64,000 bases of DNA from Patescibacteria group bacterium (GTDB lineage Bacteria; Patescibacteriota; Microgenomatia; JAMCZE01): contig JAMCRP010000001.1 in NCBI GenBank assembly GCA_023380635.1, positions 469,200 through 533,199 on the forward strand, in the 5' to 3' direction. Shown here in pieces: positions 3,292-63,336 of this stretch (positions within the stretch are counted from its first letter, which is position 1; every line of letters starts with the position of its first letter). Made by a program: the position numbers and the translations under genes. The notes below the pieces were generated by a model, which worked only from the letters and a program-made list of their open reading frames with translations, was not told the DNA's origin and searched no databases.

Positions 3292-3298
3292 ATATTTT

Positions 3299-4045
3299 AT
3301 GAAAGCAATCTACATCCTTTGGCTTAGACAATTGAAACGGTACTTGCGCTCGCGATCAAGAATCGTGGGGTCTTTAGGCCAGCCAATCCTGTTTTTAGTG
3401 GCTTTAGGCTTTGGGCTGGGGCCGACTTTTGCCCGGGCCGGAGAGGGAAGTTACCTTCAGTTTTTAGCCCCGGGGGTCATTGCCATGAGCGTGTTGTTTA
3501 CGGCAATTTTTGCCGGAGTTGAAGTCATTTGGGATAAGCAGTTTGGCTTTCTTAAAGAAACTCTGGTTGCCCCCGTTCCGCGCTGGCAGATTATGACCGG
3601 TCGCACTTTGGGCGGCGCCACCGTTGCGGCCCTCCAAGGTTTAATCGTCTTTGTGATTGCCCTGTTTGCCGGCTTCCGGTTTCCGCCCCTGGTCAATTTG
3701 ATTCCCGCCGCCATTGTGGTCGTTTTGATTGCTTTACTGTTTACCGGATTGGGAACAGCTATCGCTTCAGTTTTGGACGACATGCAGGGTTTTCAGCTGA
3801 TTATGAATTTTTTGGTCATGCCGCTTTTCTTTCTTTCCGGCGCCCTGTTTCCGCTGCGGGGGCTGCCCGAGCCATTGTCCTTGATTACTATCTTAAACCC
3901 CCTGTCATACGGCGTTGACGGTTTGCGGGGGAGTCTGACCGGAATTTCGGCTTTCAGCTTTTCCTCAGATTTATCTGTTTTAATGGTAATTACTCTGATT
4001 ATTATTGCTATCGGCAGCTATTTGTTTAGCAAAATCGAGATATGA
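3299..4045 (+). CDS. ABC-2 type transporter permease
   Basis: Six predicted TM helices and a typical ABC-2 N-terminus starting at the internal ATG at 3299. The ORF-track start at 3251 would overlap the upstream gene. Confidence 0.7.
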   Translation: MKAIYILWLRQLKRYLRSRSRIVGSLGQPILFLVALGFGLGPTFARAGEGSYLQFLAPGVIAMSVLFTAIFAGVEVIWDKQFGFLKETLVAPVPRWQIMTGRTLGGATVAALQGLIVFVIALFAGFRFPPLVNLIPAAIVVVLIALLFTGLGTAIASVLDDMQGFQLIMNFLVMPLFFLSGALFPLRGLPEPLSLITILNPLSYGVDGLRGSLTGISAFSFSSDLSVLMVITLIIIAIGSYLFSKIEI

Positions 4046-8416: not shown

Positions 8417-8807
8417 TATGAACAATTTTTTCCACAAACTGGCTAATAATATTGCCAATCTTGCCGGTTCTCCCTGGGCTTTTATCCTGGCCGTAGTCTT
8501 TATCCTTGGCTGGGTGGTTACCGGCCCGATTTTCGGTTTCTCCGACACCTGGCAGTTAATTATTAATACTGTCACCAATATCGTGGCCCTTCTTATGGTC
8601 TTTATCATCCAAAATACCCAAAACCGCGACTCCAAAGCGATAAATTTAAAACTCGACGAGCTTCTTAAGGGGGTTAAGGGCGCCCGCACCGGGATGGTGG
8701 ACATTGAAGATGTCACCGACGAGGAGCTGACCAGACTAGAGAAAGAATTTTCTGATATGCACCAGAAATATCGCGACGAACTCTCCCGCCGCCGGGCCAA
8801 AACCTAA
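8417..8807 (+). CDS. Low-affinity iron permease family protein (PF04120-like)
   Basis: FSDTWQLIINTVTNIVALLMVFIIQNTQNRDSKAINLKLDELL matches the family. Start taken at the internal ATG at 8417; the ORF-track N-terminal extension overlaps the TPM gene. Confidence 0.55.
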
Positions 8808-30971: not shown

Positions 30972-32435
30972 CTAATTAGTTTTCGTACCCCGCAAGTATC
31001 TAGCAGGCCAAGGAACATAATCTGACCAAACTGTTTCGTTAATTAGAGTTTGCCCGCTGCGGGTGACCAGTCTTTTAAAGTAAACTTTTGCCCCATAGTG
31101 GGCTGTGTCAACCTGAGTAACAACGCCTACCGGCTTAGTTGGGTCGTCTTCATAAATCGGCGCCGGCGGGGGAGCGGTCGAAACAATCACTGGGCCGGTA
31201 ATATTTACTACTCGGTTATCCGAGGTCCCGAAAAGATCAAAAGTTAATTTTTTATTGGCTTCATCAAAGGTAGTTTGAATTAAAATCCAACCGTTAGTAT
31301 CGTTTTTAAACCTAAAGTCTGGATCGGGAGGGTAAACCGTTGCATCCAGGCCGGGCAAAAAGCCGCCCTGTTCATAATAGCCGACCCGGTATGAATGGGC
31401 GGTGCGGGCGATCACTGGTAACCCTGCGTTTAAAACCGCCCGGTATAAAGTCGTCGACACTTGGCAAACGCCACCGCCGTCATCCAAAACGGTTTTTCCC
31501 TCTTTAATGGAGTAGGCCTTCGCAAAGCCAAAAACGGCTGAAACCGTGCCAATCGCCTGATCAAATGAAAAAGTTTCCCCGGGGGCTACCAAGCTGCCGT
31601 TAATTTTACTGGCGCCCAGAGAAATGTTATAAACGCGGCCGGGGATGGAATCATAAAAATAGGATTCGCCCCGTCCCAAGAGGGTTTTAATGCCCAGACT
31701 ATCGGCTGTCGAGGAATTGACTGAAGGGTAGATTACCTGGGTCGGCAGAATATAAGTAGCTGTAGTCGGCTGCCTGTAGTCAGCAGACTTCTTGGCGGCG
31801 GCCAAAATGGTTTCCTTAATTTTTTCCCGGTCGATACTTAGCCCGTTTTCGGAAGGGCGGAAAGCGGTGACGCGGCCCCGGCGGTCCGGTCCGCTATTGG
31901 GCACAAACTGATAAACCGCGTCGACGGCCACTTTTTCGATCTTGGGCGCTACCGTGTCAATTTTTTGGTCGAGAGGTTTTTCGTCGAAATTAACTTCAAA
32001 GGGTAAATTAATCTGGTTTTGCCAGGCGGCGACAATCTGCAGGAAATTGTAATAAGGGTTGGGGGTTTGCCGGCCGATAGAAAAAGCCCGTCTGGCCATA
32101 AGGCCGGTGTCGGGACGAAGGTTTAATTCTTTACCGGTAGCCGACACGGTTGCTTTGGGGTCAGAAAAAACAAAACTCAAGCTGTTTAAAGAGTTCGCGT
32201 ATCTTAAGCTTAATTCTTTCTCCAGTTCCGGTTCGGATTTGCCGGATACTTCCACTCCGGCCACTCTGACACCGGGATAAACTTTGTTTTTAAAAGTGGC
32301 GGCAAAGACCAAATATAAAGCGGCGCTTATGCTTAAAGCGGTTACCGTGGCGCCCAGCAGAAAAAAGAAGGTTGTCTTTAAAAAAGCGCGCGTCCGGTGC
32401 ATAATGATGGTAATCATTGTAGCAAAGATGGACAC
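30972..32435 (-). CDS. VanW family protein
   Basis: N-terminal TM, middle PG-binding-like region and C-terminal VanW pattern (GYYEQGGFLPGLDATVY). Confidence 0.6.
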   Translation of the reverse strand: MSIFATMITIIMHRTRAFLKTTFFFLLGATVTALSISAALYLVFAATFKNKVYPGVRVAGVEVSGKSEPELEKELSLRYANSLNSLSFVFSDPKATVSATGKELNLRPDTGLMARRAFSIGRQTPNPYYNFLQIVAAWQNQINLPFEVNFDEKPLDQKIDTVAPKIEKVAVDAVYQFVPNSGPDRRGRVTAFRPSENGLSIDREKIKETILAAAKKSADYRQPTTATYILPTQVIYPSVNSSTADSLGIKTLLGRGESYFYDSIPGRVYNISLGASKINGSLVAPGETFSFDQAIGTVSAVFGFAKAYSIKEGKTVLDDGGGVCQVSTTLYRAVLNAGLPVIARTAHSYRVGYYEQGGFLPGLDATVYPPDPDFRFKNDTNGWILIQTTFDEANKKLTFDLFGTSDNRVVNITGPVIVSTAPPPAPIYEDDPTKPVGVVTQVDTAHYGAKVYFKRLVTRSGQTLINETVWSDYVPWPARYLRGTKTN

Positions 32436-33687
32436 TAAAAAAATCCTGCTTTTAGCCGGAGGAGTTTTGGCCGTTCTAATCGTCGCCCTGGTAGTGTTTC
32501 TCCTGACTTTCGTGCGCCGGGTCGGCCCGGTAACTTTAACCTACTGGGGTTTGTGGGAGCCGGAGGAGGTTTTTCAGGGAATAATTGCCGATTACGAGCG
32601 TCTCCATCCCAATGTCACCATTAAATATATTAAGCAATCACCGTTAAATTACCGCGACCGGGTGGTGACGGCTTTATCCGGTACCAACGGTCCGGATATT
32701 GTCCGGATTCACGATAGCTGGGTGCTTACTCTGGCTTCGGGCTTATCTCCAATGCCGGCCAATGTTTATTCCCAGGCTTCTTTTAAACAAACTTTTTATC
32801 CAGCGGCCGCTACTCTTTATCCTTACGCGATCCCCCTGGAAATTGACGATTTGGCCATGTATGTTAACGATGATATTTTGCGGGCCGGGGGGGTCAGTGT
32901 CCCAACCATTTGGGACGGCGACCAGGGGTTTATGGCGACAGCCAGGAAACTAACGGTCCGGGACAGCAGCGGCCGGATTAAAACTGCCGGAGCGGCTATG
33001 GGGACAGCTTCCAATGTTGACCAGTGGCAGGATATTGTGGGTTTAATGATGGCTCAGGCAGGCGATAACTTTAACGCTGAGGCTCTGAATTACTATGTGG
33101 CTTTTGCCACTTCCGAACATATGTGGGACGAAACCCTGGATAATTCCACTCTGGCTTTTGCCAACGGCCAGGTGGCGATGTATTTTGGCCCGTCATGGCG
33201 CTATTTTGACATTAAACAAATCAACCCGAACTTAAATTTCCATCTGGCCCCGGTACCCCAGTTGGCCGGGGGAGCGGCCGCTAATTATGCTTCCTTTTGG
33301 ACCGAAGCCGTTTCCAAGCGCAGTTCTCATCAAAAAGAAGCCTGGGACTTTCTCAAATACCTTTCCAGCAGAGAAGTCTTAACGAAGTTATATGCGGCTG
33401 AAACTAATGTCCGGGGTTTCGGGGAGCCTTATGCGCGAACCGATATGGCCGATCTGCTCTCTGCTGATCCCAATGTTGGCCCGTTTATCGCGGCTGCGCC
33501 GACAGCCAAGACCTGGTATCTCGCATCTAACACCGGCGACGGGGACACCGGCATCAACACCCGGATCGGCAAATACTATGCTGATGCCATAAACTCTATG
33601 CTCCAGGGCAATAACGCCTCTTCCGTCCTGCAGACAGTGCAGCAAGGGGTAACTCAGGTACTTTCACAATATGGTCTTACAAAATAA
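32428..33687 (+). CDS. ABC transporter extracellular solute-binding protein (family 1, sugar-type)
   Basis: TM/signal anchor then LTYWGLWEPEE...; about 420 aa periplasmic binding fold. Start at the internal ATG at 32428. Confidence 0.65.
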   Translation: MDTKKILLLAGGVLAVLIVALVVFLLTFVRRVGPVTLTYWGLWEPEEVFQGIIADYERLHPNVTIKYIKQSPLNYRDRVVTALSGTNGPDIVRIHDSWVLTLASGLSPMPANVYSQASFKQTFYPAAATLYPYAIPLEIDDLAMYVNDDILRAGGVSVPTIWDGDQGFMATARKLTVRDSSGRIKTAGAAMGTASNVDQWQDIVGLMMAQAGDNFNAEALNYYVAFATSEHMWDETLDNSTLAFANGQVAMYFGPSWRYFDIKQINPNLNFHLAPVPQLAGGAAANYASFWTEAVSKRSSHQKEAWDFLKYLSSREVLTKLYAAETNVRGFGEPYARTDMADLLSADPNVGPFIAAAPTAKTWYLASNTGDGDTGINTRIGKYYADAINSMLQGNNASSVLQTVQQGVTQVLSQYGLTK

Positions 33688-33807
33688 ATTCCAAACCACA
33701 AATTCCAAACAAACTCCAATTTTTAAAAATTCAAAACCCGTAGCTTGAGGACTTTGGAGTTTAGAACCTAAGACTTGTTTGGAGCTTGTGTTTGGAACCT
33801 GGAATTT
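33686..33807. repeat. Long imperfect hairpin built from AAATTCCAAAC-family repeats between convergent genes (probable bidirectional terminator)
   Basis: Arms AAATTCCA(33687-33694)/TGGAATTT(33800-33807), TTCCAAAC(33703-33710)/GTTTGGAA(33790-33797) and CTCCAA(33714-33719)/TTGGAG(33779-33784). Confidence 0.5.
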
Positions 33808-34799
33808 TATCGATCTGCTTCTTCTTTCCAATATTTTAGTAAATCCTTCCCGATAATGGCCAGAGCTGAGGTTACCGGAATGGCAAAAATAGCGCCCCAG
33901 ACGCCGGCCAGTTTGTAGCCGATTAAAAACGAAAGCAGGACAATAATCGGATGAATTTTCAAGGCTGTGCCCATGAGTTTTGGAGCCACAAGGTTGTAAA
34001 CCAGCTGGGCGGCCAAAATGACCACGATTACGGCAATAATCATTTTCTGAACCGAGACTGTCAGCCCGGCCAAAATTATCGGAATGACAAAGATTACTGA
34101 TCCCACGACCGGAATCATGGCCAAAATGCCGGAAAGAAGAGCAGTAGACAGGGCAAAGTTAATGTTGAGAATAACCAGAGTGAGTAGAGTAATTAGTCCC
34201 AGCAGCAAGCCCAAAACAACCTGAATCTGAATAAAGGAAGCAAAGGTCTGGTTTAGAGTTTTTTCTAGGAACAGGTAATCCTCTTCATATTCGTCGGGAA
34301 TAATATCCAGGAAAAACTTGGAAATTTCCTTGCGGGAGATCAAAAAGTAAAACGAGAGAATCAGAATCAAAAGTAAATTAGTCGCCGTGGTAGCGACTCC
34401 TGATGCCAGAACCAGAGAATTATTGGCGGTCGTGCTTAAGAAACTTTCGACCCGGGCAGACAAGAAAGAATTATCCGGCAGGTAAGCCGGAACCAGGGTG
34501 GCCAGCTGGGAAAACTGAGTGACCATTGTTGGTAACACAACAAGAACCAACAAAACCACACCGGCCGCTAAGGCCAGATAAGTAATAATAGCCGCGGCTA
34601 TTCGCGGTATCCCGCCGGAAGAAATTTTAACGACCAGTGGTTCAAGAATGAAAGCCAGAACCCAGGATAAAATTAGAAGGATAAACAAATCAGCAAAAAG
34701 GCCCAGGAAAGAGCTAAACAGACCCAACAAATGCCAGCCGAGAGTTATAATGCCAAGGATGGCCAAAATCCGCAGCTCTGGAAAGTCTTTAAACTTCAT
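33807..34799 (-). CDS. AI-2E family transporter (UPF0118/PerM-like)
   Basis: 330 aa with about 8 TM helices and the family-typical topology. Confidence 0.6.
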   Translation of the reverse strand: MKFKDFPELRILAILGIITLGWHLLGLFSSFLGLFADLFILLILSWVLAFILEPLVVKISSGGIPRIAAAIITYLALAAGVVLLVLVVLPTMVTQFSQLATLVPAYLPDNSFLSARVESFLSTTANNSLVLASGVATTATNLLLILILSFYFLISRKEISKFFLDIIPDEYEEDYLFLEKTLNQTFASFIQIQVVLGLLLGLITLLTLVILNINFALSTALLSGILAMIPVVGSVIFVIPIILAGLTVSVQKMIIAVIVVILAAQLVYNLVAPKLMGTALKIHPIIVLLSFLIGYKLAGVWGAIFAIPVTSALAIIGKDLLKYWKEEADR

Positions 34800-35607
34800 T
34801 AATTCTCATTATAGCCAACCCCGATCCGTTTTCAATCGGGGCCGGCTCGCTGCCGTTGTCTACGCTGACCTCTTTGGCTATCCGCTGACGGTTAAAGAAG
34901 CCAAACTTTGGGACATCCGCCAGGTCAGGGCAAAATATTCTTCGCAAAAAGAAAAAGAAGCGCTAAAAGTTACGGGGCTGCTAAAAAAAATCCCGACAGT
35001 GGCGGCAGTCTTTTTAACGGGGTCGGTGGCCGCGCAGAATGCCACTTCTAGGGCTGATATTGATTTAATGATCGTCACCCAGCCTAATACTTTATGGCTG
35101 ACGCGATTATTGGTATTTCCCTGGCTAAAACGGCGGTTTTGTCCCAACATTTTTCTCGATTTAAACCATTTGGAAATTAAGGATCAGAATTTGTTCACTG
35201 CCCATGAAATATTACAAGCAAAATGTTTATATGACCGGGACAAGGTAGAACGACGGTGGTTGAAGGTTAATTTGTGGACAAAGGAATACTTACCAGAGGC
35301 CTACAAAAATTCCAAATCCCGAATTCCAAATCCCAAACATGCTTTAAATTCAAAATCGCAAACCCCGAAATTTTGGAATTTTCCCAATTGGACATTGAAA
35401 TTTATTTGGAATTTGGTGCTTAGCGCCTGGAATTTATTTTTACTTATCCCGGAATTTTTTGCTTTTCTCTTTCAGTATTTGTATATGAAACCAAAAATGA
35501 CTCATGAACGGGTGGGTTGGGGCTTTGCTTTTTTTCACCCTTACAACTTATCAGAAATAGTGGTACAAAAGTTTGAGAAGAAATTGCTAAAATATACCCA
35601 CCTATGA
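34750..35607 (+). CDS. Nucleotidyltransferase-domain protein (Pol-beta superfamily)
   Basis: GS...(x)9..DIDLMIV motif (LTGSVAAQNATSRADIDLMIV). The start is uncertain; the ORF-track start at 34648 overlaps the divergent gene. Confidence 0.45.
   Translation: MPRMAKIRSSGKSLNFINSHYSQPRSVFNRGRLAAVVYADLFGYPLTVKEAKLWDIRQVRAKYSSQKEKEALKVTGLLKKIPTVAAVFLTGSVAAQNATSRADIDLMIVTQPNTLWLTRLLVFPWLKRRFCPNIFLDLNHLEIKDQNLFTAHEILQAKCLYDRDKVERRWLKVNLWTKEYLPEAYKNSKSRIPNPKHALNSKSQTPKFWNFPNWTLKFIWNLVLSAWNLFLLIPEFFAFLFQYLYMKPKMTHERVGWGFAFFHPYNLSEIVVQKFEKKLLKYTHL
34808..34841 (-). promoter_or_regulatory. Promoter-like TTGAAA-16-TATAAT (minus strand) overlapping a CCCCGAT/ATCGGGG hairpin; leaderless start for the AI-2E transporter gene
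   Basis: Reverse complement of 34830-34835 is TTGAAA and of 34808-34813 is TATAAT. Hairpin arms at 34819-34825 and 34835-34841. Confidence 0.35.
35305..35390 (+). repeat. AAATTCCAAA-family repeat with an internal inverted repeat, in frame inside the nucleotidyltransferase CDS
   Basis: AAAAATTCCAAATCCCGAATTCCAAATCCCAAAC ... GAAATTTTGGAATTTTCCCAATTGG; it encodes NSKSRIPNPK...KFWNFPNW. Confidence 0.5.
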
Positions 35608-43772: not shown

Positions 43773-46211
43773 TTACGGCTGCTTATTATTTTCCGGAGGG
43801 TGCAGGATTTTGTCGACCTCTTCTTTGGTAAAGTTGCACGCGGTTTTAGGTTCAGTGCCCTTGATAAAGTATTCAGTCTTGGTCGGACAATTCTCGCAAG
43901 GCAACAAGCCATTCAGGCTGCAGACCTGGATCGGAATAATATTATCCGGGCGGGCCACGCCTTCATCAGGTTTGCCGGCGAGCAAATATTTCATGATCGG
44001 ATTCCAGACAGCCGCCGCTCCGCTGTTGCCGGATTCGAGAGCCGCTCCCATGGGTGAATTATCGTTGTTACCTACCCAAACAGCAGCCAGTATACTGGGA
44101 GTGTAGCCAATCGTCCAGTTATCCCGTTTGTCTTCCGTTGTACCCGTTTTAACGCTGACCGTCCGGCCGGGGATAACCAGGTTGCTGTTGGGACCAAAAG
44201 TGGGTGTCCGGGCGGAATTATCGGCAAGAATGTCGCTAATGAGAAAGGCGGTTTGTGGCGAAATAACCTGAGTGCTTTGAGGAACGCTATTAAAGCCAAG
44301 ATGATCTTCCAAAACTTTTCCCCGATAGTCCGTAATTTTTTCGATGGGGTTTAAATCCACTCTTTTCCCGCCGGTGGCAAAAGCGCTGTAGGCGGTAGCC
44401 AAATCCATCATTGTCACTTCGCCTCCACCCAGAGTTAATGACAGACCAAACCGGCTGCGGTCGGTCCAGGTGGTAATTCCCATCTTCTGGGCGAAATCAA
44501 TAAAATTGCCCACGCCGTTTTTTTCCAGAACTCTGACCGCCGGGATATTGTAGGAGCTCGCCAGGGCGGTGCGCACCGAAACCCGACCATGGAACCGGTT
44601 GTCGTAATTTTGTGGGGCGTAATCCGGACCGCCGGCACTGCGATAGACTACCGGCGAATCGTCGAGAATGGTTGACGGGGTAATAAAGCCTTTTTCAAAG
44701 GCTAGGGCATAGTTTAGGGGTTTAATCGAGGAACCAGGGGAACGGGCGGCCAGAGTGACATTAACATTGCCGTCATGAGCGCTGTCAAAAAAATTGACCG
44801 AGCCGACCATGGCCAGAATTTCTCCGGTCGCCGGGTTAGTGACCAGAGCTGCTCCGTTACCGACATTTAAACTTTTTTGGGCGACGACGCCGTCAGAAAT
44901 CATCTTGGTCACCTGTTCGTAAATACCATAATCCAAGCTGGTAGTAACTTCCAGTCCACCTTGTTCGACTGTCCGTGCCCCATATTTTTTGGTCAGATAA
45001 TCGCGGACATACATGACAAAATGGGGGGCCTTAATGGCAGTTTCCGGGGGCGTAAAGTTAAGCGGTTGGGCTAAAGCGGCCACCAGCTGGTCGCCGTTAA
45101 TGTAGCCCTGGGAAGCCATGTCTTCAAGGACTTGTCTTTGGCGTTCGCGGGAGAGTTCCGGTCTGGTGCCAAAAGGCGAATAGGTCGTCGGGGCGGAAGT
45201 CAGTCCGGCCAAAAGTGCCGCCTCGCCCAGCGTTAAATCTTTGGCGTGTTTGCCGAAATAGGTTTGGGCGGCGGCATCAATGCCGTAAGCCGCGCCGCCA
45301 TAAGGAATCTGGTTAAGGTACATGGTTAAAATCTGGTCTTTGGAATAAAGCCGCTCTGCCCAGAAAGACAAAATTAATTCTTTAATTTTTCGCGACCAAG
45401 TCTTTTCCGGGGAAAGCAAAGCGGAGCGGATCAGCTGTTGGGTAATGGTGGAACCGCCCTGGACAATTTCTCCCTGGGAATTGGCAAACGCCGCCCGGGT
45501 AATGCCCGCCAGGTCAAAGCCCCAGTGGTGGTAAAAATTTTTGTCTTCAATCGCAATGGCAGCCTCCGGGACATATTTTGGCAAGTCGGAGAGGGCAATC
45601 ATGTTGCGGTTTTCCCCGGAATAAATTTGGTAAAGTAGGACGCCGTTTCGGTCATAAATTTTTGTCGAGACAGGAATGTCCCGGGCTGATAACAACTCTG
45701 GGTTAGGCAACTGGTCCAGTTCAAACTTGGCCCAGACGGGAATGAAAATAAAAAAAACGGCCAGGACCGCTCCAATTCCCAGGTAAGCCATTTTTTGCGG
45801 TAACCTCACGGAGCGGAAGCGAAAATTAATATAGAACCAGTTTGTCAGCCGGCGGATTTTGGTTTTTATCCGAGGTTTTTTGAAGCGGGGCAGGGGCAAT
45901 TTGGGCCAGGAAAATTCCGGCCAGTAAATTTTTGGCAGCGATTTTTGTGGAGGTTCAGGTAGTTCGGGAAACCGGAAATTTTTGGCTAAAGTGACGATCG
46001 GAGACAAAAACCAGAAGAGGGTTTTAATTAAACCTTCAAACAGGAAAACGATTTTCTGGCATAGTTTGATAGTTTCGTTGCCGAGCCAATAGATGGTCCA
46101 AACGAGAATTTTAATGGCGAACAAAACAGGAGTTCCGATGGCACTTAAAGTTTGCCCGGTTATTTTTAATAATTCTAGAAGCCAGTTTTTAGCATAATAA
46201 TGGGAAGACAT
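43773..46211 (-). CDS. Class A penicillin-binding protein (transglycosylase + transpeptidase)
   Basis: GT51 motifs EDKNFYHHWG...GGSTITQQL; transpeptidase SSIKPL, SYN and KTGTT. Confidence 0.85.
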   Translation of the reverse strand: MSSHYYAKNWLLELLKITGQTLSAIGTPVLFAIKILVWTIYWLGNETIKLCQKIVFLFEGLIKTLFWFLSPIVTLAKNFRFPELPEPPQKSLPKIYWPEFSWPKLPLPRFKKPRIKTKIRRLTNWFYINFRFRSVRLPQKMAYLGIGAVLAVFFIFIPVWAKFELDQLPNPELLSARDIPVSTKIYDRNGVLLYQIYSGENRNMIALSDLPKYVPEAAIAIEDKNFYHHWGFDLAGITRAAFANSQGEIVQGGSTITQQLIRSALLSPEKTWSRKIKELILSFWAERLYSKDQILTMYLNQIPYGGAAYGIDAAAQTYFGKHAKDLTLGEAALLAGLTSAPTTYSPFGTRPELSRERQRQVLEDMASQGYINGDQLVAALAQPLNFTPPETAIKAPHFVMYVRDYLTKKYGARTVEQGGLEVTTSLDYGIYEQVTKMISDGVVAQKSLNVGNGAALVTNPATGEILAMVGSVNFFDSAHDGNVNVTLAARSPGSSIKPLNYALAFEKGFITPSTILDDSPVVYRSAGGPDYAPQNYDNRFHGRVSVRTALASSYNIPAVRVLEKNGVGNFIDFAQKMGITTWTDRSRFGLSLTLGGGEVTMMDLATAYSAFATGGKRVDLNPIEKITDYRGKVLEDHLGFNSVPQSTQVISPQTAFLISDILADNSARTPTFGPNSNLVIPGRTVSVKTGTTEDKRDNWTIGYTPSILAAVWVGNNDNSPMGAALESGNSGAAAVWNPIMKYLLAGKPDEGVARPDNIIPIQVCSLNGLLPCENCPTKTEYFIKGTEPKTACNFTKEEVDKILHPPENNKQP

Positions 46212-46878: not shown

Positions 46879-49092
46879 TTACATAGCGCAGTCGGCGCAG
46901 TAGTTTTTCTGGAAGGGGTCGGAAATAACCAGGTGATCTTCTTCTGTCAGTTGATCCGGGGTAGGTTTGTCATTTGGTCCCGGGACTTTGTGGCTATCTT
47001 TGTAAACCAGAACTTTCTGTTTTTGGCCCCAGACGGAATCCTTTTGGGTGGGCACAAAAGCCTTAATAAAATATTCGCCGCGCTGGGGACAATCGTGATC
47101 GGGTAGCAAACCGGACAAACTGCAGACCTGGGCAAAGACAATGCCGTCGGGTTTAACCGGCCATTCGGCGGGTTTGCCCTTTAGAACATAGCCGAAAATA
47201 TCATGCCAGATGGGAGCGGCGCCAGTGTCGCCGGATTCGAGATAGGGTGACATCGGCGAATTGTCATTATTGCCGACCCAGACCGCAACTAAGTAACTTG
47301 GAGTATAACCAATGGTCCAATTATCCCGTTTGTCTTCGGTCGTACCCGTTTTAACGGAAACGGTTTCCCCGGGAATATTTAAGATGCTGCCGGCACCGAA
47401 AGTGGTGGCCCGGGCACTGTCATCTAAGAGGATATGAGAAATAAGATAAGTTACTTCCGAAGGTAAAACCCAGTGGCCATGCGGCACCCAGGGAGCGGAA
47501 CCGTCCCAAGAAGGTTGGGTGGTCTCGGTAGTAAAATGAGTGTTGTCTTCCAAAACTCGGCCGGTAGCGTCTTCAACCTTTAAAATTGGAGTTAAATCCT
47601 GTCGCCGTCCGGCGTTAGCAAACACGCCGTAAGCCACGGCCATGTCGACCATTTTTACTTCGCCGCCACCAAGAGTCAGGGAGTAACCATAGCGGCTGGG
47701 GTCATCATTAAAAGTGGTGATTCCCATGGCGGAGGCGGTGGCGATAAAGTCCGGAACAGTATTTAAAGCCAGTTCTTTTACGGCCGGGATATTAAAGGAA
47801 TTGCCCAAAGCAAACCGGGTTTGGACCACACCGTGGAATTTGCCGTCATAATTTCCCGGACAATAACTTTTGCCGTTAAACGGCGGAAAACAAAACGGAG
47901 CGTCGATCCAGGCGGTGGCTGGGGTGGTAGTGCCTTTCAAAAAACCCAGAGCGTAATTTAAGGGTTTAATAGAAGAGCCCGGGGACCGATTAGCCAAAGT
48001 AACATTAACCTTGCCGGAATCGGAGGCGAAATAATCTTTGGAGCCGATCATAGCCAAAATTTCCCCAGTGCTCGGTCTAGTGACCAGAGCTGCCCCGTTG
48101 CCGACATTTAAACTGGCTTGTTTAGCCACATCCGCGGATAAAGAAGCCTGAACGGCGTCTTGAAGATCTAAGTCCAGACTGGTCGTCACTTTTAGTCCGC
48201 CGTTTTCGACCAGGGTTTCGCCGTATTTTTGCACCAGCAGCTCTTTAACATAGGCGACAAAATGCGGGGCTTTAATCCCGGCAGAAACAGAGGCCATGTG
48301 GAGATTTTCATTTTCCGCAGTTTGGAGCTGGGCGTTGGAAATATAACCATCTTCAGCCATGCGCTGCAAAACCTGGTGTTGGCGGACAACACTGCGACTT
48401 GGATCGGTTCCAAAGGGGGAATAATAAGTGGGAGCCTGAGGTAATCCGGCCAAAAGTGCAGCTTGGGCCAGATCCAGATCTTTGGCGTGTTTGTTAAAAT
48501 AAATTTCGGCGGCCTCCTCAATGCCGTAAGCCGTGCCGCCATATGGTACCCGGTTAAGGTACATCGTTAAAATTTGGTCTTTGGTGTAAATTTTTTCTGT
48601 CCAGAAGGCCAAAGCCACCTCTCTAATTTTGCGCGTTATCGTGCGTTCAGGGGTTAATAAACTCATTTTAACCAGTTGTTGGGTGATTGTTGAGCCGCCC
48701 TCCAGTTGACTGCCGGTCAACATGTCTTTAATGGCCCGTAAAATTCCGCCGGCAAAATTAATCCCACCGTGTTTGTAAAAATCCTTGTCTTCAATAGAAA
48801 TTGTAGCTTCCTTAACTACCTGGGGAATATCTGAGGAGGGAATGACTGTTCGGTTCTCAGAGACATAAATGTTGTAAAGCAGTTTGCCGTTACGATCTAA
48901 AATCTTGGTAGTCTGGGGGACCGGCCGGTCGGTTAGGGCTGTAGGTCCGGGAAGGTCTTTGAGGGTTGCCACCAGAGTAATAAGTAGGGCAATTGCCCCG
49001 ACAGAAACCAAAGCCAAAAGATAAGGAATAAAGGAACGAAAGTCTTTCGGAGGAAAATGGAAACGGACAAAAAGTTTCCTGATTTTCTGCAC
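46879..49092 (-). CDS. Class A penicillin-binding protein (second paralogue)
   Basis: IEDKDFYKHGG...GGSTITQQL; SSIKPL, KTGTT. Confidence 0.85.
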   Translation of the reverse strand: MQKIRKLFVRFHFPPKDFRSFIPYLLALVSVGAIALLITLVATLKDLPGPTALTDRPVPQTTKILDRNGKLLYNIYVSENRTVIPSSDIPQVVKEATISIEDKDFYKHGGINFAGGILRAIKDMLTGSQLEGGSTITQQLVKMSLLTPERTITRKIREVALAFWTEKIYTKDQILTMYLNRVPYGGTAYGIEEAAEIYFNKHAKDLDLAQAALLAGLPQAPTYYSPFGTDPSRSVVRQHQVLQRMAEDGYISNAQLQTAENENLHMASVSAGIKAPHFVAYVKELLVQKYGETLVENGGLKVTTSLDLDLQDAVQASLSADVAKQASLNVGNGAALVTRPSTGEILAMIGSKDYFASDSGKVNVTLANRSPGSSIKPLNYALGFLKGTTTPATAWIDAPFCFPPFNGKSYCPGNYDGKFHGVVQTRFALGNSFNIPAVKELALNTVPDFIATASAMGITTFNDDPSRYGYSLTLGGGEVKMVDMAVAYGVFANAGRRQDLTPILKVEDATGRVLEDNTHFTTETTQPSWDGSAPWVPHGHWVLPSEVTYLISHILLDDSARATTFGAGSILNIPGETVSVKTGTTEDKRDNWTIGYTPSYLVAVWVGNNDNSPMSPYLESGDTGAAPIWHDIFGYVLKGKPAEWPVKPDGIVFAQVCSLSGLLPDHDCPQRGEYFIKAFVPTQKDSVWGQKQKVLVYKDSHKVPGPNDKPTPDQLTEEDHLVISDPFQKNYCADCAM

Positions 49093-49099
49093 GGCTTGA

Positions 49100-49690
49100 T
49101 TGTACCACGGACTTTGGGTTATTCTAAATTCAATGAAGATTAATAATATCGCCTTTTTGGGGTTTGCCGAGTGTAAACCGGAAAGTGACGAGTATAAAGA
49201 AGCTTTCGAAACGGCTAAACTTCTGGCGCAGGCGGGTTATACCATTATCGACGGCGGGGGACCGGGGATCATGCGGGCGGCTACCGAAGGGGCCCATGCC
49301 GGCGGGGGAAAAGCCATTGGCATTACTTATTATCCGGAAAGCAAGGAGCCAAACTTTGAAGGCCGGGACCCGGAAAATAAATTTGATGAAGAAATTATTG
49401 CCGACACCTATGTTGAACGGACGCTGCGAATTATGAACATGGCGGATGTCTATCTCATATTTAATGGCGGGACAGGAACGATTTCGGAGTTTGGCATGGC
49501 TTGGGGCTTAGCCCGGATTCATTTCGGCCACCACCGGCCTCTGATTTTGTTTGGCAATTTCTGGCACCAAATTATTGAAGCTTTCGGCAAGGGCATGCAT
49601 CTGCGGCCGGAAGAACTTCAGGTTTACCACATCGTGACCACTCCCGAAGAGGCGTTGATTAAGATTAAAGCGCTGGAAGCCGGCACGTAA
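49100..49690 (+). CDS. LOG family protein (TIGR00730; cytokinin riboside 5'-monophosphate phosphoribohydrolase-like)
   Basis: GGGPGIMRAATEGA ... GGTGTISE motifs. Confidence 0.7.
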   Translation: MYHGLWVILNSMKINNIAFLGFAECKPESDEYKEAFETAKLLAQAGYTIIDGGGPGIMRAATEGAHAGGGKAIGITYYPESKEPNFEGRDPENKFDEEIIADTYVERTLRIMNMADVYLIFNGGTGTISEFGMAWGLARIHFGHHRPLILFGNFWHQIIEAFGKGMHLRPEELQVYHIVTTPEEALIKIKALEAGT

Positions 49691-49695
49691 TTTTT

Positions 49696-49713
49696 AATTT
49701 GAAATTTCAAATT
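49696..49713. promoter_or_regulatory. Perfect 18-bp palindrome AATTTGAAATTTCAAATT at the deoC start
   Basis: Self-complementary; lies between the LOG stop (49690) and deoC. Confidence 0.4.
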
Positions 49714-50382
49714 GTGGATATTGCTAAATATCTCGACTTAGCTAATCATCATCCCAACTCTACTGAGGCGGATATTAAAAACATCTGCGACAAGGTAAAA
49801 GAATACGGCTTTAATTCCGCTTTTGTAAATCCGTTCTATATTCAGTACGCGAAAAGTTTTGGAGTAAAGGTCGGAACGGTAATCTCCTTCCCGTTGGGTC
49901 AGGAAACTCTATCCGTAAAAAGTGGCTGCGCGGAAAGCTACGCCTCGCTGGGGGCTGACGAGCTGGATGTTTCCTTAAATGTTGGGTACATCAAGTCGGG
50001 AAAATATACCGAGAGTTTGGTGGAAATGAAAGCGGTGGTGGAAGCAGCCAGAAGGATTAATCCTAAGATAATCATTAAATTTATTCCGGAAACCGGTTAT
50101 TTAACCCCCGATGAGATTAAGCAGACGGCAGAAATCATGGCCGATTCTGGCGCGGATTTTTTCAAAACCTGTTCGGGGCTGGGGCCGCGGGGAGCTACCG
50201 TCGAAGATATCAAACTAGTTCGCGAAGCCATTGGTAAGAAGCTAAAGATAAAAGTGGCCGGTGGCATTGAAACTTTTACCCAGGCAAAATCCTTTATCGA
50301 TGCCGGAGCGGACCGCATTGGAACTTCTCATGCGGTGGAAATTACGACTAAGTCCGCCGCTACAAAATTCTCCGGAGAGTAG
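49699..50382 (+). CDS. deoC: Deoxyribose-phosphate aldolase
   Basis: DeoC N-terminal pattern (ANHHPNSTEADIKNICDKVKEYGF..AFVNP), Schiff-base region KIKVAGGI. The start is either TTG 49699 or GTG 49714. Confidence 0.75.
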   Translation: MKFQIVDIAKYLDLANHHPNSTEADIKNICDKVKEYGFNSAFVNPFYIQYAKSFGVKVGTVISFPLGQETLSVKSGCAESYASLGADELDVSLNVGYIKSGKYTESLVEMKAVVEAARRINPKIIIKFIPETGYLTPDEIKQTAEIMADSGADFFKTCSGLGPRGATVEDIKLVREAIGKKLKIKVAGGIETFTQAKSFIDAGADRIGTSHAVEITTKSAATKFSGE

Positions 50383-50396
50383 TGTAATATGAATAT

Positions 50397-51314
50397 ATGC
50401 TGCCCGAGTTTGTTTGCGTGGGGGACGCGACCCGCGATTTTTTCATTTTTCCTGAAAGCCTGACCGTAACCAACGGCAAACTGGAGCTGGAATACGGGGC
50501 CAAAATTCCGGTTTCCGACATTGCCTGGTCGCTGGGCGGCAACGCGGCCAATGTTTCCGTGGGACTGTCCCGGCTGGGAATAAACGCTGCCTTGGTAACC
50601 ATCTTTGGCGATGACGACCGGGGAGTCTGGATTAAACGGGAACTAATGAAAAATAATGTCGTTTTAGACTATTCTGTAATTGATCCGGCGCGCCAGTCCA
50701 ATCTATCGACGGTGATCGTGGTCGGCGGCGACCGGACAATTTTAAGCTATCACGCTCCAACAACTCAAAAAATCGCTAAAATCCCTGAAACTAAGTGGCT
50801 GTATCTGACCTCGTCTGCCGGAAAAAGTTCCGACGAAACCTTTGCGGCGATAGAAACTTTCCTGACTGCCCGCGGCCAATCGGGCGGTCTCTGCCCCAAA
50901 ATTGCCTTTAACCCCAATATGCAGGATTTAAAGAAGGGCCGGGAATATCTCCAATCGATTTTAGCAGTGACCGAAGTTTTAATCCTTAATAAGGAAGAGC
51001 TGGAAACTTTAATCGGGGAAGTGACAGAAGAAAAGATGCGGGAACTAGGACCAAAAATAATTGCCGTGACTGACGGACCCAACGGGGCCGGAATTTTTGA
51101 TGGCCAAAAGTATTGGCAAAAACCTTCTGTCGGCGGTAAAGCAGTTGAAGCCACCGGAGCCGGAGATGCCTTTAGCAGCGGCTTTCTGGCCGCGCTGTAT
51201 TACGGTAAAAATCTGGAAGAGGCCCTCGATTGGGGACTGCGAAATTCAGGTTCTGTTATTAAGAGGGTTGGAGCCATAGAAGGTCTCCTGGATAAAAATG
51301 CTATCTCAATTTGA
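50397..51314 (+). CDS. PfkB-family carbohydrate/nucleoside kinase (ribokinase-like)
   Basis: GGNAANVSVGLSRLG and GAGDAF motifs. Confidence 0.7.
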   Translation: MLPEFVCVGDATRDFFIFPESLTVTNGKLELEYGAKIPVSDIAWSLGGNAANVSVGLSRLGINAALVTIFGDDDRGVWIKRELMKNNVVLDYSVIDPARQSNLSTVIVVGGDRTILSYHAPTTQKIAKIPETKWLYLTSSAGKSSDETFAAIETFLTARGQSGGLCPKIAFNPNMQDLKKGREYLQSILAVTEVLILNKEELETLIGEVTEEKMRELGPKIIAVTDGPNGAGIFDGQKYWQKPSVGGKAVEATGAGDAFSSGFLAALYYGKNLEEALDWGLRNSGSVIKRVGAIEGLLDKNAISI

Positions 51315-51362
51315 AATTTGAATTTTTCAATTTGAATTTAATTTCAAATTTTAAATTTCAAA
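51308..51362. repeat. AT-rich block of TTTGAAATT / AATTTCAAA inverted motifs upstream of the aldolase gene
   Basis: AATTTGAAATTTGAATTTTTCAATTTGAATTTAATTTCAAATTTTAAATTTCAAA; related to the deoC palindrome and to the AAATTCCAAA repeat family. Confidence 0.4.
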
Positions 51363-51387
51363 ATGAAAATTGGAGTTGAAAAAGAAA

Positions 51388-53967: not shown

Positions 53968-54975
53968 TTGATGATGAAACTGTTAACAATTGATCAGGAA
54001 GAAGTGAAGGAGAAGCGGGTGCTGGTAAGGGGAGATATTGACGTTCCGCTTCAAATTCCAAGCTCCAAATCCCAAATTCCAATAATCACTGACGACACAC
54101 GACTGCAAGCGATGAAACCGATGCTGGAATACCTTATTAAAAACGAGGCTTCGGAAATAATTCTTTGCGGACATATAGGCAGGCCGGAAGGGAAAGTGAG
54201 GCCGGAGTTGTCAACTAAACCCGTACAAGAATGGATAAGCGGGAAAGTGGGTAAGCAGGTAAGGGTTTTAGAAAACTTAAGGTTCGACCCGAGAGAAGAG
54301 GCCAATGATGAAAGTTTCGCGCGCGAATTGGCCGCAATGGCGGATATTTATATTAATGAAGCTTTTGCCGCTTGCGAGAGAGAACACGCGTCTATCGTCG
54401 GAGTACCGAAGCTGCTCCCGCATTACGCTGGATTTAGGTTAGCGGAAGAGGTAGAAAAATTAAGCAGGGTAATGGATAACCCGGAGAGACCAATGCTGGT
54501 AATTATCGGCGGAGCGAAGTTGGAAACAAAACTGCCGGTCATTACAAAAATGGTGCAAGCGGCTGATGAGATAGTTGTGGGAGGGAAATTGTTGGGGGAG
54601 ATAAAGGACAAAGGATCCGGAACAAAGATCCACTACCTTGAATTGACTGACGGCGGGAAAGATGTCACACTGGAATCAATCGACGCTAATAAAGAGGCGA
54701 TTGCCGACGCAGCGACCATTGTCTGGAACGGGCCGATGGGAGTAGTGGAGGACTACACCTTTCAAGTTGGCACTAGGAGAATCGCCGAATTGGTCGCCAG
54801 CAATCAAAAGGCGAATAAGATTATCGGTGGCGGGGATACAATTGGATTTGTGAATAAGTTGGGGTTATTAGATAAGTTTCAGTGGGTGAGCACGGGCGGA
54901 GGGAGCATGCTGAAATTTTTAGCCGGGGAAAAACTACCCGGCATTGAAGCACTTTATGATCAGACTGGCAATTAA
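53968..54975 (+). CDS. pgk: Phosphoglycerate kinase
   Basis: KRVLVRGDIDVPL...ITDDTRL, GHIGRPEG, GGGDT motifs; 335 aa. Confidence 0.85.
   Translation: MMMKLLTIDQEEVKEKRVLVRGDIDVPLQIPSSKSQIPIITDDTRLQAMKPMLEYLIKNEASEIILCGHIGRPEGKVRPELSTKPVQEWISGKVGKQVRVLENLRFDPREEANDESFARELAAMADIYINEAFAACEREHASIVGVPKLLPHYAGFRLAEEVEKLSRVMDNPERPMLVIIGGAKLETKLPVITKMVQAADEIVVGGKLLGEIKDKGSGTKIHYLELTDGGKDVTLESIDANKEAIADAATIVWNGPMGVVEDYTFQVGTRRIAELVASNQKANKIIGGGDTIGFVNKLGLLDKFQWVSTGGGSMLKFLAGEKLPGIEALYDQTGN
54049..54087 (+). repeat. AAATTCCAA-family repeat inserted in frame in the pgk N-terminal loop
   Basis: TTCAAATTCCAAGCTCCAAATCCCAAATTCCAATAATC encodes QIPSSKSQIPII, which is absent from canonical Pgk between DVPL and ITDDTR. 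Confidence 0.55.
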
Positions 54976-56819: not shown

Positions 56820-59312
56820 ATGGCGCAAGTTGATCCGCAAACCAAAATTACCGAACCGATTCCGGCTATTGTCCGGCCGGGGCGCCCACCAAAGGCGGAA
56901 GTTCCAAATTCCAAGCACCAAATTCCAAACACCCAGAACTCTACTAATACCAATATTAGTATTGTGCCGCCGATGCCGGAAGATCTGCCTCAGGGTCACT
57001 GGAGCGAACAGGCGGAAAAAGTCCTGCGGGAAAGATATCTTCTAAAAAACGAAAGCGGCGAGATTCTGGAAACTGCGGATCAGATGTGCTGGCGGGTTGC
57101 CTGGGACATAGCTTGCGCTGAAGCCAATTTCGGCCACAGCTACGAGAGGATTATGGAAGTAGCCCGGCAGTATTATCACCTTCTGGCCACCCACGAATTC
57201 TTGCCCAATTCTCCAACCTTAATGAATGCCGGCAAAAATAACGGCTTGCAGTACAGCGGCTGTTACGTGTTGCCGATTGACGACTCATTAATCGGCATTT
57301 TTGACGGGATCAAATACGCTGCCATTATCCACCAAAGCGGTGGGGGCACGGGTTTTTCTTTTTCGAGATTGCGGCCGGCCGGGTCCCGGGTTGGTTCTTC
57401 ACATGGAGTGGCTTCCGGGCCGGTATCCTTTCTGCAGGTTTACGACAGCGCTACTGAACAAATTAAACAGGGCGGGTCTCGCCGGGGTGCCAACATGGGA
57501 GTGTTACGCATTGACCATCCCGATGTTTTGAAATTCATTCATTGTAAAGAAGACGGCGGGATAACAAACTTCAATATTTCCGTGGCCGTCACCGATAAGT
57601 TTATTCAGGCTGTAAAAGAGGGGACTACTTATGATCTTATTGACCCGCACACCAAAAAAGTGACTGCTCAACTGGATGCCCGTCAGGTGATGGAAGAAAT
57701 TGCTCAGGGGGCCTGGAAAACCGGTGACCCGGGCCTGATTTTTATTGACCGGATAAACGCGGGGTCGGGCAATCCCGTGCCGTCTTTGGGCCCGGTAGAG
57801 ACCACAAACCCCTGCGGCGAGCAACCACTCTATCCGTTTGATGTCTGCAATCTCGGCAGTATCTTCTTAACCTACTTTGTTAAAGATAATAATGGCCAAA
57901 AAGAGGTTGATTGGGAAAAACTGGAAAAAGTGACCAAACTGGCTGTCCGGTTTCTGGATAGCGTCATTGAAAGAAATCCTTACCCGCTTCCCCAGGTGCG
58001 GGAAATGTCCCGCTTGATCCGCCGGATTGGCCTGGGAGTAGGGGGCTGGGCGGACATGCTTGTCCAGTTGGGTATTCCCTATAACAGCGATGAAGCCATT
58101 GTCCTGGCGGAAAAAGTGATGGGCTTTGTCAAGGAAAAGTCGCACGAAGCCTCACAAGAATTAGCACAAGAGCGCGGGACTTTTCCCATGTTTGCCGAAA
58201 GTATTTACCGAGACGGTCCGGCGATGCGTAACGCTACAGTGACGACCATTGCCCCGACCGGTTCCATTGGCGTGATTGCTCACACTTCGACCGGCATTGA
58301 ACCACTGTTTGCCATCGCTTTCAAGCATGTCGTCAAAGATAAATTTCTGGACCGGGAAATGAGTTACTTTAATAATTATTTTGAAAAAGCCGCAATCGGT
58401 CAGTCCTGGTATACCCCGGAAGTCAAAGAAAAAATTGTCACCCAGGGAACTATTGCCCATATTAACGAAATCCCCGAAGAAGTCCGCCGGGTCTTTGCCA
58501 CGGCTCACGAAATTTCTTATGACTGGCATGTCAAAATGCAGGCGGCTTTTCAAAAATACACCGATAACGCCGTGTCTAAAACAATAAATCTTCCTCATGA
58601 CGCCACCGCTGAAGACATTAAAAATGCCTACCTTTTGGCCTACGAGACGGGCTGCATGGGGATCACAGTCTACCGTGACGGCTGCAAAGACATGCAGGTG
58701 TTAAATTTGGGGACCAAAACCAAAGAGGCTAAAGAAGAACCCAAGACTAACGGCCACGCAGTGACGGCGGCCGCGGAAATAATGCCGCGGCCGGTGAAAG
58801 TGGACGGAGCCACTTATAAAATCGAAACGCCTTTAGGCCGGGCTTACATTACCGTTAACCAGGATGCCGAAGGCAATCCCTACGAAGTTTTTATCAGCGT
58901 CGGCAAGGCGGGTTCAGAAGTAGCGGCTATGGCCGAAGCGATCGGAAGACTAATATCCACGACTTTGCGTTTTGGTAATCATCTGCCGGCCCGCGAACGG
59001 GCCAGGGAGATAGTTAACCAATTGCATGGCATTGGCGGTGGCAGTGCCGTCGGCTTTGGACCCAACCGGGTTCGCAGCTTACCCGATGCGGTGGCCAAAG
59101 CGATCAGCATGCATTTTGGGTTAAGCGGCCAAATTGATATTGCCAATTTGAAACTGGACGCGGAAGCGCAAAGAGCCAAAGCCGAAGACCCAACCCTTAG
59201 TCCTAAATATCTTTCCGCCAAGCGTGATCTTTGTCCCTCCTGCGGGGCCGCAGCCTTTGTTTTTGAAGAAGGCTGCTCCAAATGTTACGCCTGTGGCTAT
59301 TCAAAATGCTAA
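56820..59312 (+). CDS. nrdJ: Ribonucleotide reductase class II (adenosylcobalamin-dependent) with a C-terminal Cys4 zinc ribbon
   Basis: Active-site NPCGEQPL, thiyl-radical region, C-terminal CPSCG...CSKCYACGYSKC. Confidence 0.85.
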   Translation: MAQVDPQTKITEPIPAIVRPGRPPKAEVPNSKHQIPNTQNSTNTNISIVPPMPEDLPQGHWSEQAEKVLRERYLLKNESGEILETADQMCWRVAWDIACAEANFGHSYERIMEVARQYYHLLATHEFLPNSPTLMNAGKNNGLQYSGCYVLPIDDSLIGIFDGIKYAAIIHQSGGGTGFSFSRLRPAGSRVGSSHGVASGPVSFLQVYDSATEQIKQGGSRRGANMGVLRIDHPDVLKFIHCKEDGGITNFNISVAVTDKFIQAVKEGTTYDLIDPHTKKVTAQLDARQVMEEIAQGAWKTGDPGLIFIDRINAGSGNPVPSLGPVETTNPCGEQPLYPFDVCNLGSIFLTYFVKDNNGQKEVDWEKLEKVTKLAVRFLDSVIERNPYPLPQVREMSRLIRRIGLGVGGWADMLVQLGIPYNSDEAIVLAEKVMGFVKEKSHEASQELAQERGTFPMFAESIYRDGPAMRNATVTTIAPTGSIGVIAHTSTGIEPLFAIAFKHVVKDKFLDREMSYFNNYFEKAAIGQSWYTPEVKEKIVTQGTIAHINEIPEEVRRVFATAHEISYDWHVKMQAAFQKYTDNAVSKTINLPHDATAEDIKNAYLLAYETGCMGITVYRDGCKDMQVLNLGTKTKEAKEEPKTNGHAVTAAAEIMPRPVKVDGATYKIETPLGRAYITVNQDAEGNPYEVFISVGKAGSEVAAMAEAIGRLISTTLRFGNHLPARERAREIVNQLHGIGGGSAVGFGPNRVRSLPDAVAKAISMHFGLSGQIDIANLKLDAEAQRAKAEDPTLSPKYLSAKRDLCPSCGAAAFVFEEGCSKCYACGYSKC
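56901..56934 (+). repeat. Tandem CAAATTCCAA(G/A)CAC repeat in frame in the nrdJ N-terminus
   Basis: GTTCCAAATTCCAAGCACCAAATTCCAAACACCC encodes VPNSKHQIPNTQ. Confidence 0.55.
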
Positions 59313-63262: not shown

Positions 63263-63336
63263 GGATCCGTAGCTCAATGGTAGAGCAGATGTCTTATACA
63301 CATCATGTTGTAGGTTCGAGTCCTACCGGATCCACC
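63263..63336 (+). tRNA. tRNA-Ile with anticodon UAU (decodes AUA)
   Basis: Hand-folded cloverleaf: acceptor GGATCCG/CGGATCC, D-stem GCTC/GAGC, anticodon stem GATGT/ACATC with loop CTTATAC, 5-nt variable loop, T-stem GTAGG/CCTAC with TTCGAGT loop, discriminator A and CC encoded. Confidence 0.8.

Follow-up and report, generated by a model that had tools for sequence, protein, structure and literature searches.

How does the gene for an essential glycolytic enzyme come to carry, within its reading frame, a piece of DNA that resembles a dispersed repeat? The question is raised by pgk, which encodes phosphoglycerate kinase (Pgk) in a 64,000-nt stretch (the window) of contig JAMCRP010000001.1 from a Patescibacteria group bacterium, positions 469,200 to 533,199. 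A preliminary description of this DNA placed a copy of a repeat element at window positions 54049–54087, between two conserved Pgk motifs, and likened it to the Rickettsia palindromic elements (RPEs). The analysis reported here indicates that the segment is quite probably a lineage-specific gain, in frame, of repeat DNA by a surface loop that tolerates it, carried as a passenger and not as an adaptation.

The repeat segment of pgk

The host gene pgk (53968–54975, forward strand) is a 335-aa open reading frame (ORF) starting at TTG; the NCBI start is the next ATG, giving 334 aa. Its product matches the Pfam PGK domain with an E value of 5e-87 and shares 100% identity with P0001, which NCBI lists as a phosphoglycerate kinase from Patescibacteria group bacterium. 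The 33-mer TTCAAATTCCAAGCTCCAAATCCCAAATTCCAA lies on the forward strand at 54050–54082, inside the interval 54049–54087, as an exact match that is unique in the window, and the claim of a repeat copy in frame within Pgk is thereby borne out. In codons it reads cTT CAA ATT CCA AGC TCC AAA TCC CAA ATT CCA Ata and translates to (L)QIPSSKSQIP(I), flanked by DIDVPL and ITDDTR. The same 33 nt resolve into about 4.7 imperfect tandem 7-nt units (AAATTCC AAGCTCC AAATCCC AAATTCC AA), and Tandem Repeats Finder (TRF) reports a period of 14 at 54048–54082, with about 2 copies and 82–85% matches. A single G occurs in the 33 nt of the insert, whereas the pgk sense strand is 29.6% G. This depletion, together with the verbatim recurrence of a 23-nt core elsewhere, points to a repeat-DNA origin of the segment. 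An independent Logan assembly (L124, run SRR10278331) matches 13,005 nt of the window without a difference; the segment is therefore not the artefact of a single assembler.

The pgk copy is a C-rich, non-palindromic single arm of 33 nt that lacks an inverted partner. No hairpin forms locally, and the predicted fold is weaker than that of shuffled sequences (z = +1.38). At its 3' end (54944–54975), pgk shares about 20–32 nt with the beginning of the GAPDH gene that follows it, the extent depending on the start chosen.

Orthologue comparison of the Pgk loop

Comparison with orthologues, proposed in the preliminary description as the means of telling a repeat insertion from an ancestral loop, supports a gain in the lineage of the window. 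The peptide QIPSSKSQIP is present in none of 119 other Pgk homologues, in which the commonest loops are LKDGxIx (7 aa) and LSPF (4 aa); across Pgks of the candidate phyla radiation (CPR) the loop ranges from 4 to 32 aa. Aligned by HMMER with the enzymes of T. maritima (1VPE) and B. stearothermophilus (1PHP), the window Pgk is exactly 7 residues longer at this place (NVPVK-------DGVVQDDTR against DVPLQIPSSKSQIPIITDDTR in the window Pgk). A syntenic orthologue (L133), whose gene order matches that of the window (Transgly, LDcluster4, DeoC, PfkB, FBA, PGK, GAPDH, DUF5667 and ribonucleotide reductase, RNR), has the loop LKDGVIT, and its DNA aligns with a single clean 21-nt gap at 54050–54070. The corresponding loop of a second related locus (L134) is LSPF, and no motif of the CCAAAT type occurs in about 11 kb of either locus. 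The net gain in the window pgk is thus 21 nt, which equals three units or seven codons and keeps the frame. On the strength of the 21-nt gap in L133, the 7-residue gap relative to 1VPE and 1PHP, the LSPF loop of L134 and the absence of the peptide from all 119 homologues, the gain appears from these alignments to be derived and lineage-specific.

Unrelated lineages bearing the same segment on unrelated DNA, which would have spoken for an ancestral loop, were not found; distant Pgks carry different repeat-derived segments. In one CPR lineage (L123) the loop region (3046–3165) contains (AAACTCA)x4 and encodes ETQNSKLKTQN, in another (L122, likewise 3046–3165) it contains (AGAATTC/AGAGTTC)x4 and encodes EFRVQNSEFR, and in a third (L121, 789–968) it holds a 75-nt palindrome, GTCATTGCGAGGAG...CTCCTCGCAATGAC. 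The presence of unrelated repeat DNAs at one loop position suggests a permissive site that has repeatedly gathered repeat DNA.

Repeat-like inserts are also seen at further positions of Pgk. The L123 gene has a hairpin-like block, HPEFILQQAQDGELAES...IRQAQDPEFTEGL, at 3256–3450 (P0098), and in alignment A1 two other Pgks (P0035 and P0047) have an insert of the form NPSASSGQAEF / NPSTSSGQADEY after DPREEAN.

Position of the segment in the protein

The preliminary description expected a structural model to place the insertion on a surface loop. In an AlphaFold2 model of the window Pgk (pLDDT 93.9, pTM 0.90), the segment is predicted to form a 9-residue loop, residues 30–38, between two short strands (28–29 and 39–40), and the ten-residue blocks around it average pLDDT 95 and 90. 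Foldseek aligns the model with solved PGKs at TMq 0.83–0.87, and the Pgk fold is thus predicted to be intact despite the insert.

Residues D23, D25, R45, H69 and R72 occupy invariant alignment columns. We take these to be the equivalents of human PGK1 residues D23, N25, R38, H62 and R65 of the 3-phosphoglycerate (3-PG) site. The numbering offset relative to human PGK1 is +7 after the loop, and the Protein Data Bank contains an entry for an R38M mutant PGK. In the model, a beta-hairpin connects the DxD(N)VP motif (D23, D25), which binds 3-PG, with DDTR (R45); the insert extends its tip, and this tip would face away from the active site.

Other copies of the repeat in the window

The preliminary description assigned the pgk segment to a family of intergenic hairpins. 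The family itself is well supported; with up to 3 mismatches allowed, an 18-nt core matches the window 5 times where 0.23 matches are expected, and none of 100 shuffled sequences reaches 5. The intergenic assignment does not hold for a hairpin near 35.3 kb, which is intragenic. One repeat family (D2), with 65–82% identity among its members, comprises segments at 33678–33711, 35306–35339, 54052–54085 and 56905–56938. TRF detects a period of 7 or 14 at the 35.3-kb, pgk and RNR copies (35307–35337, 54048–54082 and 56902–56933; 2–4.4 copies, 71–100% matches) and a period of 11 at the 33.7-kb copy. In this genome the repeat is built of the 7-nt units CCAAATT, CCAAATC and CCAAGCA/T, and its full form is a long hairpin whose C/A-rich arm precedes the G/T-rich one. 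Of the four copies in the window, three are coding and in frame: the Pgk loop, a linker in the RNR protein and a hairpin in a nucleotidyltransferase.

The second C-rich single arm, AAGTTCCAAATTCCAAGCACCAAATTCCAAACACC (56899–56938, forward strand), is 82% identical to the pgk copy. It lies in frame in the RNR ORF (56820–59312), close to the N-terminal end and ahead of the catalytic core, in a variable linker of which it encodes VPNSKHQIPNTQ, with the peptide VPNSKHQIPN. Other RNRs align to the window protein only from about residue 47–62. The N-terminal 25-aa peptide MAQVDPQTKITEPIPAIVRPGRPPK is conserved in the syntenic loci L133 and L134, and a variable linker leads from it to SIVPPMP. Conservation of this upstream peptide in two syntenic relatives indicates that the repeat is translated and rules out its reading as an untranslated 5' leader. 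The pgk and RNR arms both begin about 80 nt past the start codon (53968/54050 and 56820/56900) and occupy codons 28–38.

A complete hairpin copy is present at 35306–35435 on the forward strand (repeats I5 and I8), with the C-rich arm at 35306–35339 and the G-rich arm at approximately 35404–35435. It sits in frame within the nucleotidyltransferase gene (34648–35607), where it encodes NSKSRIPNPKHALNSKSQTPKFWNFPNWTLKFIWNLVLSAWNLFLLI, and the NCBI gene call (P0121) reads through it. Alignment of 23 nucleotidyltransferase homologues shows that both flanks are conserved (WTKEYLPxAYK ... ExxAFxxQYLYMKPKxTNExVGWG) and that five homologues have an empty site (YLPLPF-ELLAF). Among syntenic loci, one (L132) has an empty site of 18 nt, a second (L130) has a different hairpin of the CCAAT/ATTGG type (-46 kcal/mol), and a third (L131) has a single A-rich heptamer array. 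Since the same site is either empty or filled by other hairpins and arrays, it appears to be an insertion hot spot.

The remaining copy is an intergenic hairpin at 33686–33806 (no strand assigned), which occupies exactly the interval between a convergent pair of genes, those for a solute-binding protein (32284–33687, forward strand) and an AI-2E transporter (33807–34799, reverse strand). Its predicted fold of -32.9 kcal/mol (z = -3.8) is equalled in stability by none of 200 shuffled sequences. A scan for consensus terminators flagged none of the window hairpins, this one included.

A cluster of shared k-mers at 8608–8637 was considered as a further family member and proved to be unrelated, ordinary coding sequence, and no members were found among the other G-poor stretches of the window. 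Small A/T-rich intergenic palindromes at 49688–49714 and 51306–51371 consist of AATTTGA/AATTTCA heptamers and belong to a separate unit family (D7, I20, I21; TRF period 7, 8.3 copies). Two direct-repeat blocks, 44525–45394 and 47769–48635, are 75–84% identical and 3241–3244 nt apart (D1, D4, D13), and are probably two tandem paralogous genes. The window also contains a tRNA-Ile with anticodon TAT (63263–63336), an uncommon bacterial route to reading AUA.

The 23-nt core across phyla

The 23-nt core AAATTCCAAGCNCCAAATYCCAA was scanned verbatim against one genome per GTDB species. It occurs at no fewer than 120 loci (L001–L120), and the matches listed represent about 15 phyla; by simple arithmetic, about 0.1 exact occurrences would be expected by chance in 596 Gb. 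Carriers in the Bacteroidota include isolates and complete genomes (Maribacter halichondriae, Salinimicrobium spp., Pricia antarctica and Chitinophaga japonensis). Further carriers belong to the Planctomycetota, Acidobacteriota, Aminicenantes, Desulfobacterota, Chloroflexota, Verrucomicrobiota, Omnitrophota, Elusimicrobia, WOR-3 and several CPR lineages, and one Thermoplasmata archaeon, a metagenome-assembled genome (MAG), is among the matches listed. Locus GC content spans 31–69% in the same set, and the motif itself has 35% GC.

The listed copies share an architecture. A C/A-rich arm made of the units CCAAATT, CCAAGCA, CCAAATC and CCAAGCT is followed by a variable loop and then a G/T-rich arm; the inner motifs ...AAACAAAT... 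and ...CAATGACC... each occur in about 10–16% of the listed copies. The polarity is strict, with the G-rich arm downstream in 72 of 134 listed copies and upstream in one. The two arms are often non-colinear and have units in common, and units resembling TTGGTCA are found within the G-rich arms of many hairpins. In Flavobacteriaceae (L026, L104), units of the CCAAAT type form plain 14-nt tandem arrays, and longer perfect arrays occur at Salinimicrobium and Bacteroidales loci.

Most listed copies are intergenic, and 61 of 134 start between -120 and +100 nt of the stop codon of an ORF on the same strand, a count that has no null model. Internal in-frame copies are found in GatB_N of a Roizmanbacteria MAG, in the editing domain of LeuRS (two copies), in a molybdopterin oxidoreductase of a Planctomycetota MAG and in two type IX secretion system (T9SS) tail domains of a WOR-3 MAG. 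In all of these the C-rich strand is the sense strand. The four main units lack stop codons in all six frames; read in the C-rich sense they give polar Pro/Ser/Lys/Gln peptides (QIPNSKF-, KSQIPNP- and PSTKHQA-type), and in the antisense they give hydrophobic FGIWNLEF-type peptides. Apparent G-sense copies within ORFs of other genomes, such as one in the signal peptide of a sulfatase (L055), proved to be artefacts of TTG start calls and of read-through upstream of true starts.

Database searches gave no match to the family. At gathering score, Rfam recognises only tRNA in the window; in six hairpin loci it returns tRNAs and three matches with E values of 0.45–0.98, far under gathering scores. 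Searches of the accessible literature with the literal DNA and peptide strings, and for palindromic or heptanucleotide repeats in CPR, found nothing relevant. A full hairpin used as a blastn query had no match to plasmids and phages, a result for which low-complexity masking is a possible cause, and 2.9 million viral contigs contained only five matches.

Origin of the segment

Taken as a lineage-specific passenger in a tolerant loop, the pgk segment could have arisen in a few steps. The DNA would have arrived by non-transposase copying from another copy of the repeat, through template switching or through gene conversion for which CCAAA supplied the microhomology, and slippage of the units would have followed. 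The loop would be a site of naturally variable length, and selection would leave only in-frame, C-sense copies at permissive places. The full hairpins are probably terminator-like or 3'-stabilising RNA structures at gene 3' ends, and the high coding fraction of copies would reflect the compact CPR genome. A dedicated transposase is a less likely source of the segment; an origin that does not involve a transposase is favoured by the sharing of units and not of a consensus, by the lack of a target duplication at the Pgk junctions, by the lack of a Y1 transposase in the window and by the simple-sequence behaviour of the repeat in Flavobacteriaceae. The window copies, which are 65–82% alike and have units in common but no colinear consensus, speak against copy-and-paste mobility.

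Several observations weigh against this account. First, the repeat-like DNA spans 33 nt, yet the net gain is only 21 nt, so that the event either replaced a few codons of the ancestral loop or was something other than a simple insertion. Second, the closest relatives are just 60–67% identical in Pgk; the gain is therefore undatable, and an empty site from the same species is not at hand. Third, the loop is modelled with a pLDDT of about 90, which could signal an ordered and possibly used structure. Fourth, a verbatim 23-nt core in genomes of 31–69% GC is unexplained by local slippage. Finally, the analysis covered 64 kb of a 559,045-bp contig.

A competing possibility, which we regard as rather unlikely, is that the repeat is a mobile miniature element, similar to RPEs, REPINs or MITEs (miniature transposable elements with inverted repeats), that is moved by a transposase encoded elsewhere, for example of the Y1/RAYT type, and that the pgk copy is a truncated half-element. 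Full copies are long inverted repeats, identity of the core over about 15 phyla regardless of host GC would fit horizontal spread, and the differing occupants of the same sites could mean repeated insertion. The related CPR locus L134 has a Y1_Tnp gene of the IS200/RAYT type inserted in the syntenic glycolysis cluster (3159–3605), with short G+C-rich hairpins on either side. However, no counterpart of this gene was found in the window, where a tblastn search of the 64 kb with a CPR Y1_Tnp protein returned nothing significant; other transposase families were outside this screen. The repeat lacks a colinear consensus, its 7-nt units occurring in varying order and in arms that often do not correspond. 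The Pgk junctions, CCGCT/TCAAATT...TTCCAA/TAATC (slashes mark the boundaries), display neither terminal inverted repeats nor a target-site duplication, and the check for duplications concerned these junctions, with no systematic search at other loci. The scarcity of matches in viral contigs, the lack of a plasmid or phage match to the hairpin query and the tandem arrays of Flavobacteriaceae (L026, L104), which behave as simple-sequence repeats, also argue against a mobile element.

It is quite improbable that the insertion was kept for a function, either as a C/A-rich unstructured mRNA tract that aids translation or as a Pro/Ser/Lys loop for interaction or regulation. The fairly high confidence with which the loop is modelled, the position of the pgk and RNR arms about 80 nt after their start codons and local RNA that is less structured than shuffled controls would be compatible with such a role. 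Two coinciding positions are weak statistics, though, and the in-frame copies in GatB, LeuRS and molybdopterin oxidoreductase lie about 220–280 codons into their genes. Moreover, the segment is missing from all other orthologues examined, syntenic ones included, and elsewhere the same loop is filled by unrelated sequences.

Two further explanations have almost no likelihood. An old or selected protein loop that resembles the repeat by chance, which the variable length of CPR Pgk loops (4 to 32 aa) would permit, is effectively refuted by the exact match to a 23-nt motif, the excess of matches in the window over expectation, the strong G depletion of the insert and a net gain of exactly three units at a site that is empty in a syntenic orthologue. 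A phase-variable contingency repeat, in which gain or loss of a single unit switches pgk on and off, would exploit the fact that 7 nt is not a multiple of three and the proneness to slippage attributed to heptamer repeats in PMC4679880 (citing Mrazek 2007), but the units are imperfect (about 2 copies at period 14, 82–85% matches), two assemblies agree exactly, a scan of metagenome contigs for strain variants with 3–33 nt between the exact Pgk flanks gave no match, and shutting off a core glycolytic enzyme would be implausible in a fermentative CPR bacterium.

Comparison with known repeat systems

As summarised in PMC10969869 from Ogata et al. (2000, 2002), RPEs are palindromes of about 100–150 bp that conform to a defined family consensus and occur in Rickettsia only. 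Measured against that account, the likeness proposed in the preliminary description holds in one respect and fails in another. As with RPEs, repeat DNA is found in frame in unrelated housekeeping genes, free of stop codons, compatible with the fold and at permissive surface positions, and a large share of the copies in a compact genome is coding (three of four in this window). The likeness fails for a complete palindrome; the Pgk piece adds 21 nt net and consists of one non-palindromic arm, 33 nt long and made of 7-nt units, although the nucleotidyltransferase copy does form a hairpin. The repeat further differs from RPEs in its patescibacterial host, in a core spread over about 15 phyla and in the sharing of units in place of a consensus. 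The Pgk segment is therefore analogous to Rickettsia RPEs but, judged by size, palindromy, consensus and host range, outside that family.

Heptanucleotide repeats have been reported in the form of the cyanobacterial short tandemly repeated repetitive (STRR) sequences, for example TTGGTCA, and as TAACTGA in Beggiatoaceae, Cyanobacteria and Bacteroidetes (PMC4679880, and Mrazek et al. 2007 therein). The repeat described here resembles them in its 7-nt unit, its sporadic spread across phyla by a vector that is not known, and its mainly intergenic location (PMC4679880). The head-to-tail tandem 7-nt copies typical of STRR and long simple-sequence repeats (LSSRs) are also present, with a TRF period of 7 or 14 at three window copies. 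Unlike the CCAAAT-type units, TAACTGA contains stop codons, and its direct repeats lie mainly just upstream of start codons (PMC4679880); the CCAAAT-type units are free of stop codons in six frames, typically fold into hairpins close to gene 3' ends, with the C-arm ahead of the G-arm, and occur in frame in genes.

Similarity extends to intragenic MITEs and terminator-like repeats (ERIC, BOX, Correia and SPRITE), which are likewise small hairpin repeats near gene ends that are sometimes fused in frame to ORFs (PMC10969869). Those elements are characterised by terminal inverted repeats, target duplications and a lineage-restricted consensus (PMC10969869), none of which was found for the heptamer repeat. 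In contrast to MITEs, the full hairpins are inverted over their whole length and not merely at their ends. The repeat also departs from REP/REPIN-RAYT systems in that three of four window copies are intragenic, the core is cross-phylum and not genome-specific, and the window contains no Y1 gene.

Conserved enzymes of Plasmodium contain low-complexity insertions in surface loops that are in frame and appear near-neutral. These too are cases of simple-sequence DNA enlarging the surface loops of housekeeping enzymes in frame. Unlike the heptamer repeat, however, they occur in eukaryotes as Asn/Lys repeats at the codon level, with AT bias as their driving force, and have no 7-nt unit in common with hairpin elements.

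Significance

Repeat DNA appears, from the modelled Pgk, to be able to lengthen the loops of an essential enzyme without breaking it. The pgk segment offers a clean, checkable example of repeat DNA reshaping an essential enzyme outside Rickettsia, and it comes from the CPR, whose members have tiny genomes and scarce intergenic space. Unrelated repeats recurrently land or expand in certain loops and linkers, which is relevant both to the annotation of the odd and often unexplained low-complexity inserts in CPR proteins and to an understanding of how loops grow.

The cross-phylum 23-nt core, which has neither an Rfam family nor a literature match, is a puzzle that may outweigh the Pgk case in importance. 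We suggest, tentatively, that heptamer hairpins of the CCAAAT type may represent a multi-phylum repeat class that is so far undescribed and has a single underlying cause, which may be an unrecognised mode of propagation with a very broad host range or selection for these units by an almost universal factor that binds single strands with a 7-nt footprint. If this is true, the essential proteins of compact genomes such as those of the CPR would have, in single C-rich arms, a general source from which new surface loops arise.

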